From assembly GCA_965208735.1 (NCBI GenBank), contig CBDBPM010000002.1:3699687-3763686 (forward strand): a DNA stretch of 64,000 nucleotides. Reading direction: 5' to 3'. How positions within the stretch are numbered: the stretch's first letter is position 1; each line of letters opens with the position of its first letter. A model generated the notes under the pieces. It was not told the origin of the DNA, ran no database searches, and was given only the letters and a program-made list of their open reading frames with translations. The position numbers and the translations under genes are program-made. Shown here one piece after another: positions 17,286 to 25,180 of this stretch. The DNA comes from Candidatus Poribacteria bacterium. Its GTDB lineage: Bacteria; Poribacteria; WGA-4E; WGA-3G.

Positions 17286-19271
17286 TCACCACGGCTGCCT
17301 ATATGACGGCGAATTCGCGAAACGTTCCATCCCCAATTCCAAATCAATCTCTGTGTTCGGTGGCAGCTGGACACGGAGATACATGCCATTGACCGGAACT
17401 GTTCGCACTGCCTGACCGATGTTAGCGCGTGCTGAAGTGAAGTTGTGCTCACCCATCGCACCTGCTTGCACAATAACTTCCCTTGATGCTGTTTTATTCA
17501 GATTGACAAGCTGCAGTCCGGTTGTATTCGCTGTCATTTTTGTAACCAATGCACCAACATCTGGTGGAAGTCCCGGTCGCTGCTGTTGTGCGTCAAAGTG
17601 CCGCAGCCGTGTCACGAACATGCCTCCGTTGTAATGCGGTAGCGGAGTGCCACAAGTAAGTTGAACCAACCCTTCACACGTAATTGGGTTACGTCGCTGG
17701 AAATAGGCATCTCCATAACTGGCTGGATCTTCATCGTCGTTATCCATAAAATTCAGACGTGCCTCGACTTGCGAGAGGTTGTGATTGAGGATCGCTTCTG
17801 GGTATTCAGGATATTCACCCCGCATATATGCCAACCATGCACCGTCATGTCCACCGCTATCCTTCGTATGATGCCAAGCGTTGATGTCAAATTTCGATCC
17901 CGTCTTTTTAGCGATGTTCTCTGCGCGTTTTTGATCTGTCTGATCCATTGACAGTGCCCATAGATGCGCAACATCCGAGGCGTGCATCGGCATGAATTCA
18001 AACCAGCCGTCCACCTGCAAAGCCGTGCCACCCTCGTTTGTAATTGGATACTGCAACCACGAACCCGGAACATAGTTAACCTTACCCGGATCGCCATACT
18101 TCTGTGGGACGTAGAGTTGATCGTTCTGCTCAATCCCTCTCTCAATTAAAACGTCAATCTGTGAGCGCGGAAAATCAAGATACGCCAAATCTCGCCAGAG
18201 CAACGCCGCATTCTGTCCAGCGATACTTACTGCTTGTCCGACGCTATGCCATCCATGCGGCCAACTCCACCCATAGTATGAACCATACCACTTACCGTCT
18301 ATATGTTCACCAATCTTACCTGAAAGTCCGACATTGTCTGGAACGATTCCGCCGTTTTCCGCTGTACGTTCTATCCACGCCTCAACATATTCCCGTACCC
18401 ACGCTTTATATTTATCTTCACCGGTTAGGAGATAAGCATTGGCAGCAAGCGTCGTGGCGGCGAGGTTGACGACTGTATCTCCGACACCTTGCCGTTCCCT
18501 GATAAGCTGCCCCATGCGTATGCGCAGTGCCTCATTTTCCCGCACCGCTTCATGGCTCGTGCCGCCCGGTATATCGTAGAACGGCATATTATAGCCGTCC
18601 CAGGGCCAATATGGGTGTCCAGCAAAAGCCCAAAACGCCGGTCCTTTACTACCGTTCATAGCGCACTTGATGATTTTGTGCTGCGGGTCGTAGTTCAGTG
18701 CATCAGGGTCTTCGTTCATAAAAAACCCCGCAAACCGTTTTGCCCGTTCAATGTGCTTAGGGTTTGACGGGTCCGCCATGCAGAGCATATAAAAAAGGTA
18801 GTTTCCCTCGCTTTGATGAAACCAGTCATAACCGGGTTGATACTCCTTCACGACCATCGGGTAACCGTGACCGGTACCATATCGCGCCATATCATTTGTG
18901 ATGACATCGAATTCCGTATCTGCGTCAACCAAGAATTGCGTATCACCACCGAGCATATAAAAGAGGGGCCAGTTATGAAAACTTTCATAAGCATCGTCCA
19001 ATCCGTCAATACTCTGAAAGTCTGGATTCGTTGGCCAGAGCAGTGTGCCATCTGGACGCGTATATTTCTGTAAGACTTCTGGTCCTGCTGCGTTCATTTT
19101 ATCAATGAGTTCGCGTTCAAGGACTGCCCACGTCGGTGGTGTTTGGATGTGCGTCTGCGCTTCAATCGTTGGAAACACGATTTTTACCCCTGACATTTGG
19201 ATTGCAATTGGTTGCAGTATATCATATTTTCGTGTATTCGTGAAACTTATGTTTTTGGGCACCAGAGACAT
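17286..19271 (-). CDS. Large hypothetical protein, possibly a polysaccharide-active (alpha/alpha)6-type enzyme
   Basis: Uninterrupted 661 aa ORF with uniform codon usage. Aromatic- and Trp-rich (WSWPHGWHS, DGWFEFMPMH), as in glycoside hydrolase or lyase folds. No family identified with confidence. Confidence 0.55.
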   Translation of the reverse strand: MSLVPKNISFTNTRKYDILQPIAIQMSGVKIVFPTIEAQTHIQTPPTWAVLERELIDKMNAAGPEVLQKYTRPDGTLLWPTNPDFQSIDGLDDAYESFHNWPLFYMLGGDTQFLVDADTEFDVITNDMARYGTGHGYPMVVKEYQPGYDWFHQSEGNYLFYMLCMADPSNPKHIERAKRFAGFFMNEDPDALNYDPQHKIIKCAMNGSKGPAFWAFAGHPYWPWDGYNMPFYDIPGGTSHEAVRENEALRIRMGQLIRERQGVGDTVVNLAATTLAANAYLLTGEDKYKAWVREYVEAWIERTAENGGIVPDNVGLSGKIGEHIDGKWYGSYYGWSWPHGWHSVGQAVSIAGQNAALLWRDLAYLDFPRSQIDVLIERGIEQNDQLYVPQKYGDPGKVNYVPGSWLQYPITNEGGTALQVDGWFEFMPMHASDVAHLWALSMDQTDQKRAENIAKKTGSKFDINAWHHTKDSGGHDGAWLAYMRGEYPEYPEAILNHNLSQVEARLNFMDNDDEDPASYGDAYFQRRNPITCEGLVQLTCGTPLPHYNGGMFVTRLRHFDAQQQRPGLPPDVGALVTKMTANTTGLQLVNLNKTASREVIVQAGAMGEHNFTSARANIGQAVRTVPVNGMYLRVQLPPNTEIDLELGMERFANSPSYRQPW

Positions 19272-19584
19272 TCAATTGTCCATTTTTCGATCGAATTTTC
19301 ACCCCGGGCCCGGTAGGTTCGGTTTTTGCGGCGTACACGCCCAGATGCGAAGTGCATCGCGGTGTACTCACCCAAATTTTGCCCACACGCGGAGACCAAA
19401 TTTGTCTTTGCTTTACATTTGCGACTTGCATTCCAACCGAACCGGGTTCTAAGAGAAAATCTTGACCACTTCAAATCCTCTTGAATCCCATCTCAACCCC
19501 AGGTCCGGTAGGTTCGGTTTCCTAACCGAACCGGCTCCTTCAAAAAAAGATGTGAAACCCAATAATTTCTTAAAATTGAATGCC
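19265..19584. repeat. Composite intergenic repeat carrying CCGGTAGGTTCGGTTTCCTAACCGAACCGG hairpin units and a conserved 3' module (family shared with 28.7-29.2 kb and 46.8 kb)
   Basis: TCCATTTTTCGATCGAAT...CCGGTAGGTTCGGTTTT at the left end; GCATTCCAACCGAACCGG and CCGGCTCCTTCAAAAAAAGATGTGAAACCCAATAATTTCTTAAAATTGAATGC at the right end are near-identical to 29118-29174. Confidence 0.6.
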
Positions 19585-19710
19585 CTGATCATAGTTAGGT
19601 TTTCCTTGACATCTGGTCTCTTGTTATGATATGTTAATTCAGTAAAGTATATTGATTTGTATTACGTTAACTTGTGGTAAAAAATTACCGCTCGGAGTCT
19701 GGATGTACGT

Positions 19711-20583
19711 GTGCCAACTGATTTGCCATTAGGGATGGACATCTTAGAAATGACAGATAGTGAACTTTATGAAATAGGGATTAAAATCCTTACTGCTAAA
19801 CTCGGTGACTCTGAGGTGCCACGGTTTATTCGGCAGTGCAATCCCGGTAAAGGCGATTACTCTGTTGATCGACATAAATTGCTGGCAAATCAGCCCGGCA
19901 TTGACACCATTGTCAAGCGGATCCAAGATAGACGTGCGGCAAGGGAAGCAGAAGAACGCTCGCGTGCTAAAAGGTTTGCTATGCCTCAAAGTGAAATCCA
20001 AAAAATGACAGATATTGAGATTTCTGAAATCGGAAATCAGGTTCTTATCAATAAACTTGGCACAGCTGGATTGATAGGGTTTATCAGGATTTGCCAGGAA
20101 CTTAACGGTGGTTATCCTCGGGGACTGATTGAAAGTAGTGAAGAGGCTAAAGAATACATTAAACTTTACACTGCAAGCTTGATCTTAAATCCTAAAATAG
20201 TCGAAGACTACATTAAACGCGGCAATGCCTATAGTTACATTGGTGAGCATGACAAAGCCATTGCTGACTATGATCAGGCGATAAAACTCAAACCTAATTA
20301 TGCCAAAGCCTATTACAATCGCGGCAACGCTTATCGTGATAAAGTTGATTTTGACCAAGCTATCGCCGACTATACCAGAGCAATAGAACTCGAGCCCGAT
20401 TATGTTGATGCCTATTACAATCGCGGTAAACTTTACGATGAGATAAATGCGTATAACAAAGCCATTGAAGACTTTAGCACAGTGATAAAACTTGACCCTG
20501 AACATGCCGATGCATATAACTATCGTACTACGGTTTACCGCGATAAAGGCGAGTATGACAAAGCTAGGGAATCAGTCAGATAA
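19711..20583 (+). CDS. TPR-repeat protein with a duplicated N-terminal about 70 aa module
   Basis: The N-terminus has two copies of an (L/I)xxMTDxE(L/I)xEIGxx(I/V)LxxKLG...FIRx module, followed by at least five TPR units (AYYNRGNAYRDKVDFDQAIADYTRAIELEPDY...). GTG or ATG (19735) start. Confidence 0.7.
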   Translation: MPTDLPLGMDILEMTDSELYEIGIKILTAKLGDSEVPRFIRQCNPGKGDYSVDRHKLLANQPGIDTIVKRIQDRRAAREAEERSRAKRFAMPQSEIQKMTDIEISEIGNQVLINKLGTAGLIGFIRICQELNGGYPRGLIESSEEAKEYIKLYTASLILNPKIVEDYIKRGNAYSYIGEHDKAIADYDQAIKLKPNYAKAYYNRGNAYRDKVDFDQAIADYTRAIELEPDYVDAYYNRGKLYDEINAYNKAIEDFSTVIKLDPEHADAYNYRTTVYRDKGEYDKARESVR

Positions 20584-20610
20584 AGAAATTCTTCTTGTGA
20601 AGGAGGGCGA

Positions 20611-22239
20611 ATGAACGATAAATCCGATTCTCAAAATGAACTTAATAGGGTTTTGGAAAAGATTCAAGAAATAGTAAAAAAGTCCGCTGATGGAGATTAC
20701 ATCTATCGGGGTGAACCAGAACTGCATCAAGAACATCCTTATCATGGAAAGGTTTCCTCAAGCCTGTATCGCTCGTCATTGACTGATTCTGTAATGGAAG
20801 AGGGTATAGAAGAGTACCGTAAAATTATTGAATCTCAGATTGGGAACAGGGAACGGTGGACTTTGGAGTTGGCGAAAGAATATTTATATGAAACTGGCAG
20901 CGAAACAATCAGCGATTTTGAAATCTTAGCGCGACTCCAACACCATGGTGGTAAGACCAATCTTATAGATTTCACAACTGACTACCTGATTGCTCTCTTT
21001 TTTGCCTGTGATAGATCCTATCATAAAGATGGCAGGGTTATCTTACAAAAAAGAGAATCGGAAGATTACCAAGCGGAAACACCTTCAGAAGCAATTAAAC
21101 GGGTGGAATCCCAAAAAAGTGTACTGCTCCGGTCGCCAAAAGGTTTTATCAATCCAGATGTTGTGGTGATTATTCCAAAGGAACTCAAATTTTCCGTGCT
21201 AAACTATCTTGAAAAGCACCACGACATATCTACTAAAAAGATTTACAAAGATATCCACGGATTTGTAAAATGGTTAGGCGGATACATTGATCCTATGGCT
21301 GAATTTGGTAAAGGGGTAATTTGTCAAAATAGGGCGAGTTTAGGAAATAACATGCAGGAGAAATTGAAATGGTATGAAAAAGCTTATGAGCATTTTACCG
21401 AAGCATTGAGACTAAAATCAGATTTCACCGAAGTTTATATTCATCGCGGAGCTGTTTTTCGCGATGTTGCCCAGTTTGATCCTGCTCTTAAAGACTTTAA
21501 TACTGCAATAGAAATAGTCCCTGAGGCTGCCGATGCGTATAACGAGCGCGGAAGATGTTATGCTAAAATGGGTGATACTGAAAAAGCACTAAAGGATTTC
21601 AACATTGCTATAGATTTGAATTCAGAGAAGGCAGATTTCTATAACAATCGCGGTATAACTTACAAAGATATGGGTGAAGTTGACTTGGCAATGAAAGATT
21701 ATAATAAAGCAATAGAACTAGATCCAGAATTTCCCGAGGCCTATAACAATCGCGGCATAGTTTATGACGAGAGAGGTGAACTTGACTGTGCTATCAAGGA
21801 CTATAGTAAGGCAATAGAACTCAAATCTTATTATGCGAATGCCTGTAATAATCGCGGTCTGGCCTACCGAGAAAGGGGTGATGTTGATCTTGCCATTGAA
21901 GACTTTAGAAATGCAATTATAGGAGAGTATGATTTTGCTGAAGCTTACTACAATCTCTGTGAAGCCTACCTCATCAAAGGTGATTTTGAGAGTGCTTATA
22001 CTGACTTGGCTACACTAGCAATGCTAATGTCGTCTCCCTATGCGTATTTTGCTTGCGGTATAATCGGGTTGTGCCAACAGCAATGGGAAAAGGCTAGATC
22101 AGACTTTACTGTTGCTACGGATAACGGATTGGATATCGTCGCTTTATTTTATAAAGATTATGGAGGCATTGAAGACTTTGAGCAGAAGAATGATCTTCAG
22201 TTACCGGAAGACATCGCGACGATGTTGAGGCAGCAATAA
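20611..22239 (+). CDS. FRG-domain protein fused to a C-terminal TPR array
   Basis: N-terminal YIYRGEPELHQEHPYHGKVSSSLYRS ... LARLQHHGGKTNLIDFTTDYLIALFFAC fits the FRG-domain (PF08867) pattern: FRG ... L.PS.fR ... QHyG.PTrLlDwT...A.yFA. The C-terminal half is at least seven TPR units plus a tail shared with the next gene. Confidence 0.7.
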   Translation: MNDKSDSQNELNRVLEKIQEIVKKSADGDYIYRGEPELHQEHPYHGKVSSSLYRSSLTDSVMEEGIEEYRKIIESQIGNRERWTLELAKEYLYETGSETISDFEILARLQHHGGKTNLIDFTTDYLIALFFACDRSYHKDGRVILQKRESEDYQAETPSEAIKRVESQKSVLLRSPKGFINPDVVVIIPKELKFSVLNYLEKHHDISTKKIYKDIHGFVKWLGGYIDPMAEFGKGVICQNRASLGNNMQEKLKWYEKAYEHFTEALRLKSDFTEVYIHRGAVFRDVAQFDPALKDFNTAIEIVPEAADAYNERGRCYAKMGDTEKALKDFNIAIDLNSEKADFYNNRGITYKDMGEVDLAMKDYNKAIELDPEFPEAYNNRGIVYDERGELDCAIKDYSKAIELKSYYANACNNRGLAYRERGDVDLAIEDFRNAIIGEYDFAEAYYNLCEAYLIKGDFESAYTDLATLAMLMSSPYAYFACGIIGLCQQQWEKARSDFTVATDNGLDIVALFYKDYGGIEDFEQKNDLQLPEDIATMLRQQ

Positions 22240-22271
22240 CTCTAAAACCCATCGAATAGGGGTATAGTGAA

Positions 22272-23105
22272 GTGGTAACGCGTAAACCTAATGATACCGA
22301 GTCATATTACAATCGTGGCATCGCTTACTACGAAAAACGTGAGTATGATAAAGCCATCGCAGACTTTAGCGAGGTCATAAAACGCGCACCCAATCATGTT
22401 GATGCTTATTACAATCGCGGCAATGCTTATTGGGATAAAGTTGATTTTGACGAAGCCATTGCAGACTATACCAAGGCGATAGAACTCAAGCCCGATTATG
22501 CCGAAGCCTATTACAAGCGCGGTAGAATTTATGCTGAGGACGATGAGTATCACAAAGCCATTGACGACTTTGGTATGACGATAAAGTTTGACCCTGAACA
22601 TTCCAACGCGCATGGTTATCGTGCTGACCTTTACCGTGATATAGGCGAATACGACGAAGCCGTTGCGGGGTATAACATGGAAATGGAACTCCGCCCCGGT
22701 GCCCCCGAGGTCTATTATAACCGTGGAAACACTTACGCCGCAAAAGGTGAATATAACAACGCCATTGAAGACTTTAGCAAAGCGATAGAACTAAATCCAG
22801 AGTTTGCAGAGGTTTATGTCAAACGCACTTTAACTTATATCCGAATAGGCAAATTTGATCGCGCCATTCAAGATTATGACAAGGTGCTGGATCTCAAACC
22901 AAAATCTATTGCATTCTACGCGGCTCGTGGTATAATATCTCTACAAATAGAAGAATGGGAAAGTGCTAAATTAGACCTGATTTTTGCCAGAAATTTAAGA
23001 GTGAATATCATCAATATATTCCATACAATGTACGAAAACGTTGCTGACTTTGAAGAAAAAAATAATGTGCAGTTGCCGAAAGACATCACGGCAATGCTGA
23101 CGTAA
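22272..23105 (+). CDS. TPR-repeat protein, paralog of 19711-20583 and of the C-terminal half of 20611-22239
   Basis: TPR units with 80-90% nucleotide identity to stretches of the first TPR gene. The C-terminal tail (NVADFEEKNNVQLPKDITAMLT) is paralogous to the tail of the FRG-TPR protein. GTG start with a weak RBS. Confidence 0.65.
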   Translation: MVTRKPNDTESYYNRGIAYYEKREYDKAIADFSEVIKRAPNHVDAYYNRGNAYWDKVDFDEAIADYTKAIELKPDYAEAYYKRGRIYAEDDEYHKAIDDFGMTIKFDPEHSNAHGYRADLYRDIGEYDEAVAGYNMEMELRPGAPEVYYNRGNTYAAKGEYNNAIEDFSKAIELNPEFAEVYVKRTLTYIRIGKFDRAIQDYDKVLDLKPKSIAFYAARGIISLQIEEWESAKLDLIFARNLRVNIINIFHTMYENVADFEEKNNVQLPKDITAMLT

Positions 23106-23160
23106 CAATAAGCATAATTCCTGATTCATCAATTTTTGGAAGACTATAACAGGGGAGCAT

Positions 23161-24363
23161 ATGCTGGCACAAACTATTTCCGATATCATAGAATGCAAGC
23201 AAACAATTGAAAATCATAGGTTTGACGAAACCGCGACTAAACAGTATATTGTTCTCCCTATTCTCAGATCCTTAGATTGGCAAGATGACAATTTATATAC
23301 GTTAGAGGTGTTTCCAGAAAAAAGAGTTGGCGATGGAAAAGTTGACTATGCTTTGCAACATGATCAAACCTCTTTGGTATTTGTTGAGTGTAAACGTTGG
23401 GGCACAAGCATTGAGAAATATCAGGCACAAATTTGCCAGTACGCTTTTCAAGCAGGAATAGAAATAGCCGTTATCACCAACGGAAAAATATGGGACTTCT
23501 ACCTACCTAATCTAACAAGTACACCTGACAGGAGGATTATACCATGGGAAGATAGGATTTTCTGTTCCATTGATCTTGAAATACAGCAGGAAGCAGCATC
23601 CGACTTCCAAAAATATCTCTCCAAGTCTAATGTTGAACAGGGGAAAGCAAAGGTGGAAGCGCGAGAAGCGTTTCAACCCCGATTGTCCGATACTCCTTTA
23701 CCACGGCAGAATTATGGATTACCGATTCTGAAAGCCTTAGAAAGTCTTGGAGGTTCTGGAGCGACCCACCGAGTATTAGAATTGGTCTATCAATTCATGG
23801 ATTCGGCTAATGAGCTGCGAGAAATAGATAAGTCTCTTCGATCAGACGGTCAGTTTTATTGGGATAATCGGACCCAGGACATGCGACGAGAATTAATCAG
23901 TAAAGGTCTAATGAAAGATGATTCTCCGTGGGGTATTTGGGAAATCTCTAATGCTGGGCTTGAATACCTCTGTGATATGGATGTCCAAAAATCACCACGA
24001 TCCCCAACCCTGAATACTTCTTCGCACGAACATGGGGCTGAACCTTCTGATACTCCGCTTCCACGAACGAGCTATGCTTTACCTATTTTAAAAGCCTTAA
24101 TCCAGCTTGGTGGCTCTGCAATCACCAGTGAGGCACTCAAAACAGTTCGCCAATTAATGGAAAACGAATTGAAACCAATAGACCTATCACAACGTCCAGC
24201 CGGACATTTGTATTGGGAAAACCGTGTTCACGATATGCGACGAGAATTGATAAATAGGGGTCTAATGGTAGCCAATTCTCCGCGCGGAATTTGGGAAATT
24301 TCTGATGCCGGGCGTGAGTATCTTATTAATCTTAATAGTAAGGAAAATTTAGACAGTGGATAA
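23161..24363 (+). CDS. Restriction-endonuclease-like protein: N-terminal HsdR_N-type PD-(D/E)xK nuclease domain plus two tandem Mrr_N-like winged-helix domains
   Basis: GDGKVDYALQHDQTSLVFVECKRW...IAVITNGKIWDFY fits the HSDR_N pattern (rpDYvl...vvEaK...iiTNG..w.fy). The C-terminal half is two repeats of about 110 aa (DTPLPR..Y.LPILKAL..LGGS.....L..V.Q.M.....E...R..G..YW.NR..DMRRELI..GLM...SP.GIWEIS.AG.EYL) that match the Mrr N-terminal wHTH pattern. RBS GGGGAG. Confidence 0.7.
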   Translation: MLAQTISDIIECKQTIENHRFDETATKQYIVLPILRSLDWQDDNLYTLEVFPEKRVGDGKVDYALQHDQTSLVFVECKRWGTSIEKYQAQICQYAFQAGIEIAVITNGKIWDFYLPNLTSTPDRRIIPWEDRIFCSIDLEIQQEAASDFQKYLSKSNVEQGKAKVEAREAFQPRLSDTPLPRQNYGLPILKALESLGGSGATHRVLELVYQFMDSANELREIDKSLRSDGQFYWDNRTQDMRRELISKGLMKDDSPWGIWEISNAGLEYLCDMDVQKSPRSPTLNTSSHEHGAEPSDTPLPRTSYALPILKALIQLGGSAITSEALKTVRQLMENELKPIDLSQRPAGHLYWENRVHDMRRELINRGLMVANSPRGIWEISDAGREYLINLNSKENLDSG

Positions 24364-25180
24364 TACAACTAAACCTGTTATAGCAGCTCCAACAGCGCGT
24401 GCGGAGTCCGATCTTGACGGTGCGAGAAACATCCTTGCGGATGCCCTTTACGAGATGGGGTATGATGGCACGTTAGTAGACACTCTGATAGAAAGAAATG
24501 TCATTGATTTCAGTACTGTTGACTACACAAGCCATATCAAGTACCAACTTAGAGAACGTTATGGAGAATCTATTTTATGGGATGATAGTCTTGAAGATGC
24601 TGTTGCCGTTGAGGTTTTAACAGTTTCTTTAACAGGTGAACTGGGAAAAAACTGGAGTGCCTCTAAGAACGACACTTTTCAAGAACGTATCCGAGATGTG
24701 ATCGGAAAATTAATTGAAAAGTTAGGGCTAAAGGTAGTTTTGCGCTATGATTTAGTAAAGAATGGCACCTTATCCGAAGAATTGGAAAGTGTTAAACAAC
24801 ATTTGACAGTTGATTATGGAGAATTTAACTCTGATCTCCCGTATGTTGATCTTGTAATTTATACCGCCGAAAATTCGCGTGTTATTGCTGTAATCTCGTG
24901 CATAATTAATTTGAAACCCCGAATTTTTGACACAGTTTATTGGAGACTCAAATTTCGGGAAGACGAAGATAAAGCCTCTATCAAATTCTATCTCGTCACA
25001 ACTGATATAGACGAAACTCTGAAGATTGCAGACTTACCGGAAAAAAGACGAGCCATTTTAGAGGCAGAACTTGATGGCATCTATGTACTAACAGCATCGG
25101 AATTTCAGCAAAGCGATAAGGTTAAACTGTTTGAACATTTTATTGAGGATTTTAAACAAGCCATAGAAGAGAGTCAATAA
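24356..25180 (+). CDS. Hypothetical protein, translationally coupled to the nuclease gene
   Basis: Overlaps the upstream stop by 8 nt. 274 aa, acidic, no recognisable family. The segment PYVDLVIYTAENSRVIAVISCIINLK could be a degenerate D...(D/E)xK motif, but this is speculative. Confidence 0.55.
   Translation: MDNTTKPVIAAPTARAESDLDGARNILADALYEMGYDGTLVDTLIERNVIDFSTVDYTSHIKYQLRERYGESILWDDSLEDAVAVEVLTVSLTGELGKNWSASKNDTFQERIRDVIGKLIEKLGLKVVLRYDLVKNGTLSEELESVKQHLTVDYGEFNSDLPYVDLVIYTAENSRVIAVISCIINLKPRIFDTVYWRLKFREDEDKASIKFYLVTTDIDETLKIADLPEKRRAILEAELDGIYVLTASEFQQSDKVKLFEHFIEDFKQAIEESQ

Follow-up and report, generated by a model that had tools for sequence, protein, structure and literature searches.

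The 64,000-nucleotide stretch of a Candidatus Poribacteria genome analyzed here (the window) carries at 23161-24363 a gene whose 400-amino-acid (aa) product joins a predicted PD-(D/E)xK nuclease domain to two tandem winged-helix (wH) domains, and which is followed directly by a gene for a BsaWI-family restriction-endonuclease-like protein. The reading that we favor, with a probability of roughly 0.55, is that this nuclease-wH protein may be an active endonuclease that carries two equivalent wH heads and acts with its BsaWI-like partner, itself probably non-catalytic, in a defence module without a cassette methyltransferase. The features of the gene on which this reading is built are as follows.

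23161-24363, (+) strand: nuclease-wH open reading frame (ORF), 400 aa; predicted HsdR-N-type PD-ExK nuclease, then two Mrr_N winged-helix domains
23151-23157, (+) strand: Shine-Dalgarno-like AGGGGAG, 4 nucleotides (nt) 5' of the ATG
23161-23676, (+) strand: predicted nuclease domain, aa 1-172; sub-threshold Pfam HSDR_N_2/HSDR_N, Foldseek matches to BpuSI (3s1s) and HsdR (3h1t)
23317-23319, (+) strand: candidate catalytic E53, from the E.D.ECK pattern in relatives
23344-23346, (+) strand: candidate catalytic D62, aligned with D of the BpuSI/HsdR D...ExK
23386-23388, (+) strand: candidate catalytic E76, aligned with E of the BpuSI/HsdR ExK
23392-23394, (+) strand: candidate catalytic K78, aligned with K of the BpuSI/HsdR ExK
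23683-24006, (+) strand: wH repeat 1, Mrr_N type, aa 175-282; Pfam Mrr_N, a hidden Markov model (HMM) of the repeat itself, and the AlphaFold2 model
23992-24042, (+) strand: interrepeat linker, aa 278-294; disordered in the AlphaFold2 model, with a predicted local distance difference test score (pLDDT) below 50
24043-24360, (+) strand: wH repeat 2, Mrr_N type, aa 295-400; best Pfam Mrr_N stretch at aa 304-388

Predicted nuclease domain

The gene is a single uninterrupted reading frame with an ATG start, as read from the sequence, and all peptide strings quoted from it in an earlier sequence-only reading were present in the intact 400-aa product. That reading had proposed an N-terminal PD-(D/E)xK nuclease with a D...ECK motif, and the proposal was borne out by D62, E76 and K78 and by fold matches to BpuSI and HsdR. 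In the AlphaFold2 model (86 homologues in the alignment; mean pLDDT 87.2), the N-terminal domain was predicted to form a restriction-endonuclease-like alpha/beta core with strands at 54-77, 102-114 and 133-138. Foldseek comparison of this model with the Protein Data Bank (PDB) gave the Type IIG enzyme BpuSI (3s1s) as the first match at E = 2.4e-4 and a Vibrio HsdR fragment (3h1t) as the second, followed by DrdV, EcoR124I HsdR and FokI. A phmmer search of the PDB with the whole protein and a search with a profile of the N-domain gave nothing significant; the profile retrieved BpuSI and HsdR 3h1t, only at E about 0.07, with D62 and E76-x-K78 aligned onto D...ExK and the 'TNG' onto TN(G).

The Pfam matches of the N-domain were all below threshold, namely HSDR_N_2 at E = 1.6e-4, HSDR_N at 1.4e-3, and Mrr_cat (PF04471) at 0.018. 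The HSDR_N-type models scored 22.2 and 18.9 bits, short of their cut-offs of 25 and 25.1, and Mrr_cat gave 15.6 bits, under its cut-off of 21. Relatives of the protein scored above the HSDR_N-type cut-off (38.8 bits for L049, 41.1 bits for P0247 and 67.8 bits for L059). By PADLOC, the N-terminus matched REase_MTase_IIG, which represents the N-terminus of Type IIG enzymes. Since Pfam HSDR_N, PADLOC and the Foldseek matches to BpuSI and HsdR all surpass Mrr_cat, the N-domain is predicted, from profiles and model, to be a PD-(D/E)xK nuclease of the HsdR-N/Type IIG kind and not of the Mrr_cat kind. The description of the protein as Mrr-like with an inverted domain order was not upheld in this respect.

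D62, E76 and K78 were invariant in 32 two-copy homologues, down to 52% identity. When motifs and wH copies were counted in the query and its 120 listed relatives, 86 of the 87 proteins with either one or two wH domains had the pattern E53...D62...E76-C-K78 intact, and the same N-domain fused to FRG and TPR domains had lost E76 in all 13 cases (VVK or VVQ), indicating that the active site is kept specifically in the nuclease-wH proteins.

Tandem winged-helix repeats

Pfam Mrr_N (PF14338) was detected in two stretches of the protein at E = 6e-17, with 62 bits against a cut-off of 29.5. The presence of two paralogous tandem wH domains, as the sequence-only reading had claimed, was confirmed by an identity of 57% over 103 aa between repeat 1 (aa 176-278) and repeat 2 (aa 296-398) (BLASTP E = 5e-41); at the DNA level, the repeats were 75% identical across 127 nt. 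In the AlphaFold2 model, repeat 1 showed the secondary structure H-E-H-H-E-H. The linker was the sole disordered segment of the model; its length is variable among homologues, and a clade of 370-aa two-copy proteins has no linker. With Foldseek, the repeats gave local matches to the winged-helix LmrR/PadR regulators, to F93 of Sulfolobus turreted icosahedral virus and to TubR, and a search of the PDB with a profile of the wH repeat found no sequence-related solved structure for this wH subtype. The repeats are thus predicted, from the model, to fold as winged helices. Structure prediction and Foldseek, the check that the sequence-only reading had recommended, placed the N-domain in the PD-(D/E)xK superfamily and the repeats in the wH fold.

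Identity between the two repeats was determined segment by segment in the query, together with the mean of 41 two-copy proteins. The N-terminal arm SDTPLP was identical at 6/6 positions in the query (mean 69%), helix H3 (aa 233-247 versus 351-365), the usual recognition helix of winged helices, at 11/15 (mean 70%), and the wing strand IWEI at 4/4 (mean 89%). Helix H2 and the C-terminal helix diverged between repeats, with means of 56% and 37%. Because the arm, H3 and the wing are the best-conserved segments between repeats, these comparisons favor two equivalent DNA-reading heads, a putative covalent pseudo-dimer, over readers of two different marks. For the meaning of the duplicated reader, the sequence-only reading had offered both possibilities; dimer-like binding by a monomer is the one that repeat conservation supports, and recognition of two marks is the less likely.

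Coupling with a BsaWI-family gene

The gene that follows is:

24356-25180, (+) strand: BsaWI-family restriction-endonuclease-like protein, 274 aa; Pfam RE_BsaWI E = 2.7e-24

A BsaWI-family gene was located directly 3' of the nuclease-wH family gene, both in the window and in all loci whose sequence reaches past the 3' end of the nuclease-wH gene (about 30, near-duplicate contigs included). The spacing between the two genes as called ranged from -17 to +3 nt, often with overlap, and in the window the partner gene overlaps the stop codon of the nuclease-wH gene by 8 nt (GTGGATAA). In most relatives the cassette also contains genes for an N6/N4 methyltransferase (about 270 aa) and an HNH protein (about 195 aa), and its genes are usually arranged as FRG-TPR, methyltransferase, HNH, nuclease-wH and BsaWI-like. 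The pair remained unbroken whether the methyltransferase and HNH genes lay upstream (L009, L017-L028) or downstream (L010). Both the constant partner gene and the restriction-modification-type cassette of relatives had been overlooked in the sequence-only reading.

Controller (C) genes of restriction-modification (R-M) systems classically sit directly upstream of the restriction (R) gene, and the nuclease-wH gene, with two predicted DNA-binding wH domains, likewise lies directly 5' of an R-like gene and overlaps it. That the protein is a C-protein-like transcription factor for the downstream restriction gene, with its nuclease-like domain serving as a dimerisation or ligand module, is nevertheless very improbable. 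Its 400 aa greatly exceed the size of C proteins, its E/D/E-x-K residues do not vary and are under purifying selection, and solitary relatives lack any R gene that could be controlled. Alignment of the upstream regions of 10 orthologous loci showed conservation limited to the purine-rich Shine-Dalgarno sequence and the ATG, and no conserved palindrome or operator was detected there. Identity as a C protein was rejected on size, on the conserved active site and on the missing upstream operator in these loci.

Catalytic positions of the partner

The active site of BsaWI consists of E92, D145, K165 and D175, and its CCGG reader of R169-D170-R171; a 69-aa helical domain forms its N-terminus (PMC4652773). 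A profile of the partner family aligned with BsaWI (PDB 4ZSF) at E = 0.0028. By this weak alignment, the window's partner has Y163, I183 and K-P-R at the positions of D145, K165 and R-D-R, and Q/E at the position of E92. Among 120 partner homologues, all at least 61% identical, the residue at the D145 position was Y in 48, D in 24, H in 23, N in 19 and S in 4, so that Asp or Glu was present in 25/120 and Y, H, N or S in 94/120. The K165 position was I in 58 of these homologues, E in 23, A in 20, L in 8 and Lys in 4, and R-D-R is replaced by K-x-R in the subfamily. The partner was conserved elsewhere (mean column identity 67%), which argues, together with the variable catalytic positions, for retention of the fold after catalytic loss. 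Its dN/dS (ratio of nonsynonymous to synonymous substitution rates) of 0.23-0.40 is not neutral. The partner is probably a catalytically dead homologue of restriction enzymes, as judged from its sequence relatives. The BsaWI site WCCGGW was not avoided in the window (65 sites versus 54 +/- 7 expected), which fits an inactive or differently specific partner and would be explained equally by a distant methyltransferase.

The canonical E, PD, K and R-E-R were kept in three copies only (L011, L012 and L032), and these adjoin a different, 437-aa methyltransferase and have no nuclease-wH family gene before them. They form, within the same type of island, apparently canonical BsaWI-type R-M pairs of the 437-aa methyltransferase and a 227-aa enzyme (L011:10140-12143, L012:11636-13636 and L032:11085-13114); the pair of L012 adjoins an IS605 OrfB/TnpB gene. 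Relative to BsaWI, it is the canonical copies of L011 and L012 that are short. The idea of a special N-terminal extension of the partner was dropped, the partner being roughly BsaWI-sized and BsaWI itself having the N-terminal helical domain.

Two further observations were made on the partner family. In cassettes without HNH (L005-L008 and L029), the partners keep the PD Asp and a Lys at the catalytic position, and in cassettes with HNH at least one of the two is mostly lost, a hint that HNH acquisition relaxed selection on the BsaWI-like active site. In L002:9207-10925 and L014:9192-10910, the BsaWI-like ORF continues into the downstream xylose-isomerase-like (AP_endonuc_2) gene to give a 572-aa product; this product, from one Poribacteria genome, may reflect loss of the stop codon, a genuine fusion or faulty assembly.

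Purifying selection and absence of the cassette methyltransferase

Comparison with orthologues of 93-74% identity from four Poribacteria genomes (L013-L016) gave an overall dN/dS of 0.09-0.13 for the nuclease-wH gene, with dS reaching 1.8. Against L014-L016, all three domains individually stayed below 0.25. Repeat 2 gave 0.12-0.24, and the sole higher value, 0.47 for repeat 1 against L013, has very few substitutions behind it. The reading frame was unbroken in every orthologue. The gene is under strong purifying selection, and the low values for each domain indicate that both repeats are kept by selection.

The clade of the window (the window, L001-L004 and L013-L016) carries neither the methyltransferase nor the HNH gene in its cassette, and tblastn and HMM searches of the whole 64-kb window detected no homologue of either. 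Since the pair is under purifying selection in this clade, it does not need the cassette methyltransferase. This fits a putative restriction activity that would be methyltransferase-independent and possibly modification-dependent.

The same loss of methyltransferase and HNH genes, the decayed catalytic positions of the partner and the short, fragment-like genes 5' of the nuclease-wH gene in L001 might point to a decaying, functionless remnant of an R-M cassette. Such decay is hardly credible for an ORF that is intact in every orthologue, with an invariant catalytic motif and a dN/dS of about 0.1, next to a partner that is itself constrained. A pseudogene or remnant was rejected on the dN/dS of both genes.

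A mosaic was noted in the comparison of the nuclease-wH gene with L013:8001-9200, where dS was 0.585 for the N-domain, 0.043 for repeat 1 and 0.242 for repeat 2. Between the same two loci the nuclease-wH proteins are 93% identical and the partner proteins just 69%. This mosaic of synonymous divergence, together with the divergence of the partner, suggests recent recombination or allele exchange inside the locus.

Family breadth and copy number

Run exhaustively over 1.84 billion representatives, phmmer yielded 4248 relatives at E <= 1e-3, of which 1072 reached E <= 1e-10. Duplication of the reader, which the sequence-only reading had pointed out, proved not to be unique: among the query and its 120 listed relatives, 42 proteins have two wH copies, 45 have one and 34 have none, and tandem Mrr_N arrays of 2, 3 or 5 exist in other proteins (P0260, P0282 and P0287). 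Many metagenomic proteins are HSDR_N+Mrr_N fusions that have a single wH domain or a pair. Among 145 new top representatives, 27 combine the N-domain with one repeat and one (P0247) with two; P0247 belongs to another lineage and is 31% identical to the query. In a rough neighbour-joining tree of repeats, single-copy proteins grouped with repeat 1 of the query clade, repeat 2 of the query grouped with second repeats of a clade of 50-60% identity, and P0029 and P0030 showed an independent recent duplication. The number of wH copies has therefore shifted on more than one occasion.

The close family occurs almost exclusively in metagenome-assembled genomes of Candidatus Poribacteria, which are sponge symbionts, and the closest public locus is OZ251998.1 with 93% identity. 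Exact-sequence look-ups of the nuclease-wH protein and of P0121, which has the same sequence as the partner, retrieved no record. Distant relatives of the N-domain were found in Planctomycetota, Desulfobacterales and Bacteroidota. Both relatives examined outside Poribacteria are solitary genes, that of P0247 adjoining priA and that of L049 lying amid lipopolysaccharide genes with a MazF toxin nearby. A literature search on Mrr_N/PF14338 returned unrelated papers only, and to our knowledge no member of the HSDR_N-Mrr_N family has been characterised. The protein of the window is thus an HSDR_N-Mrr_N fusion from a broad family, in which the nuclease-wH order and tandem Mrr_N domains were already known; what is new is its lineage-specific context and the coupling to a degenerate BsaWI-like protein.

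Island and FRG-TPR proteins

The pair lies at the 3' end of an island, the features of which are listed below.

19400-25180: low-GC island, guanine plus cytosine (GC) fraction about 0.37-0.45 versus about 0.50 in the flanks
17286-19271, (-) strand: 661-aa ORF, conserved left border of the island; no Pfam match, same-position orthologues carry PF26099 (DUF8034)
19711-20583, (+) strand: TPR protein, 290 aa, in the island
20611-22239, (+) strand: FRG + TPR protein, 542 aa; Pfam FRG and TPR, PADLOC PDC-S15 at E = 1.5e-16
22272-23105, (+) strand: TPR protein, 277 aa, directly 5' of the nuclease-wH gene

The island thus holds three TPR genes, one of them with FRG, followed by the nuclease-wH gene and the BsaWI-like gene. 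Its slot is bordered by aldehyde dehydrogenase/DUF8034 on one side and AP_endonuc_2/GFO_IDH_MocA on the other, and the same chromosomal slot in related Poribacteria genomes carries different gene sets. The FRG-TPR gene lies two genes 5' of the nuclease-wH gene, and its product probably belongs to the same island or system.

Fusions connect the FRG-TPR proteins with the nuclease-wH family. In a group of paralogues (P0089-P0119, for example L011:7001-9025), a dead N-domain, 53% identical to the query across aa 1-161, is fused to FRG and TPR; the N-domain seems to have been reused there as a putative non-catalytic module. In L030 (12454-14316), a 621-aa fusion of FRG, TPR and Mrr_N sits directly 5' of the BsaWI-like gene, in the place usually taken by the nuclease-wH family, and the N-domain is a separate upstream gene. 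Such fusions suggest a possible functional link of FRG-TPR proteins to the nuclease-wH system. We know of no mechanism for FRG-TPR proteins.

These fusions bear on a sensor-effector scheme of the abortive-infection type, in which the FRG-TPR protein would sense an invader and activate the nuclease, for example through contacts with the N-domain, and the wH domains would only tether. FRG-TPR genes accompany most cassettes, and the FRG-TPR protein of the window matches, besides the PADLOC defence candidate PDC-S15, weakly the TPR-S 'sensor'. Such a scheme is nonetheless improbable: the flanks retrieved for the cassettes of L005-L008, L027 and L029 contain no FRG gene, the FRG-TPR protein of the window has no N-domain of this family, and TPR proteins are abundant in sponge symbionts in any case.

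Proposed mechanism

In the mechanism that we favor, the HsdR-N/Type IIG-type PD-ExK domain (E53, D62, E76 and K78) would cut DNA. The tandem Mrr_N wH domains, with their near-identical reading surfaces, would act as a covalently linked dimer and contact two adjacent or symmetric DNA sites. In Poribacteria, the nuclease-wH protein would be translationally coupled to the BsaWI-family protein, which may serve as a non-cutting DNA-binding or oligomerising subunit to a nuclease that supplies the cut. The pair may work in the defence island alongside FRG-TPR proteins. A more specific form of this proposal, which we hold only tentatively, is a Poribacteria-specific two-protein module in which a dead BsaWI-family protein would be the recognition or scaffold subunit and the coupled HsdR-N-Mrr_N nuclease would cut, with domain exchange with FRG-TPR proteins and with loss of the cognate methyltransferase in the window's clade.

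Several points weigh against the favored mechanism. The methyltransferase could sit elsewhere in the 6-Mb genome, and its presence next to the pair in most Poribacteria relatives is uneasy with a purely modification-dependent enzyme. In L033 and L034 the N-domain is encoded by a gene of its own that has no wH domain, and the cassette can therefore do without the wH reader. Partnership of the two proteins is deduced from gene order only. The inactivity of the partner depends on the weak alignment to BsaWI (E = 0.0028), and its AlphaFold2 model was poor (pLDDT 68.7, residues 188-239 below 50); Foldseek gave no significant match for this model, AgeI being second at E = 0.78. The partner of the window also keeps D165, two residues past the lost Asp. 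This position is Asp in 72/120 homologues and Asn in 47/120, and K187 is Lys in 113/120; D165 and K187 could form a shifted or rearranged active site.

A different possibility is that the protein is a stand-alone modification-dependent nuclease (Type IV/IIM, DpnI-like), which would sense a methylated base by its wH domains and would merely share an operon with a remnant of a Type II R-M system. The solitary state of distant relatives with one or two repeats, the absence of a detectable methyltransferase from the window and the common clustering of defence genes speak for it, and Mrr is presumed to bind DNA through its Mrr_N domain. Passages of PMC3874153 and PMC11037411 describe wH domains that read N6-methyladenine in DpnI-type fusions. 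We regard a stand-alone enzyme as unlikely, because the two genes adjoin strictly, overlap and remain together through rearrangement in all the Poribacteria loci examined, because most relatives adjoin an N6/N4 methyltransferase whose product the enzyme must ignore, and because PDB searches revealed no sequence similarity to DpnI or to a solved modification reader.

If the pair works as proposed, a Type II restriction enzyme fold has been turned into a non-catalytic partner of a nuclease-reader protein, and we know of no experimental demonstration of such a route in the evolution of restriction systems. With 1072 clusters of the representative library at E <= 1e-10, a share of them with both domains, the HSDR_N-Mrr_N family is large, and a first specificity would annotate many genes. 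Should the Mrr_N heads read a modification, the natural one- and two-copy variants of 70-90% identity would allow a test of reader copy number against site requirements, and the heads might find use in epigenetic tools. The locus also offers a handle on the FRG-TPR proteins, a listed defence candidate (PADLOC PDC-S15).

Comparison with known systems

C proteins of Type II R-M systems resemble the nuclease-wH protein in that their gene is located just 5' of, and overlaps, an R-like gene, and in their helix-turn-helix-type DNA-binding domains. The nuclease-wH protein differs from them in being four to five times larger, in its conserved nuclease active site and in the lack of an upstream operator. 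The partner resembles BsaWI and related Type IIP/IIF enzymes of the CCGG family in its RE_BsaWI domain, in its size (274 versus 272 aa) and in an N-terminal helical region before the core. It differs in that the counterparts of D145, K165 and R-D-R are mostly replaced and that no methyltransferase is adjacent in the window.

With Escherichia coli Mrr and Mrr-like Type IV enzymes, the protein has the Mrr_N wH domain in common. Its catalytic domain, unlike theirs, is not Mrr_cat (a PD-QxK variant), its domain order is reversed (nuclease at aa 1-172, wH at aa 175-400) and its reader is duplicated. The nuclease-first order, which the sequence-only reading had presented as a departure, is already established for DpnI, FcyTI and Psp4BI, as described in passages of PMC3874153 and PMC11037411. 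These PD-(D/E)XK-wH enzymes are likewise small, NTP (nucleoside triphosphate)-independent proteins with an N-terminal nuclease and a C-terminal wH domain. Methyltransferase genes are rare near them according to PMC11037411, and no homologue of the cassette methyltransferase was found in the window. What sets the protein apart is a predicted nuclease of the HsdR-N/Type IIG kind, a wH domain of the Pfam Mrr_N kind that is present twice instead of once, and the coupling of its gene to a BsaWI-like gene. DpnI was absent from the phmmer and profile searches of the PDB (whole protein, N-domain and wH repeat) and from the top 50 Foldseek matches. By analogy, the protein may work like the DpnI-type class, but it is not a member of that class by sequence.

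Type I HsdR and Type IIG/IIL enzymes (EcoR124I HsdR, BpuSI and DrdV) gave the best fold and profile matches and have the same core layout D...ExK...TNG. Unlike them, the nuclease-wH protein carries no helicase or translocase, methyltransferase or target-recognition domain, and the pair of wH domains would be its targeting module.

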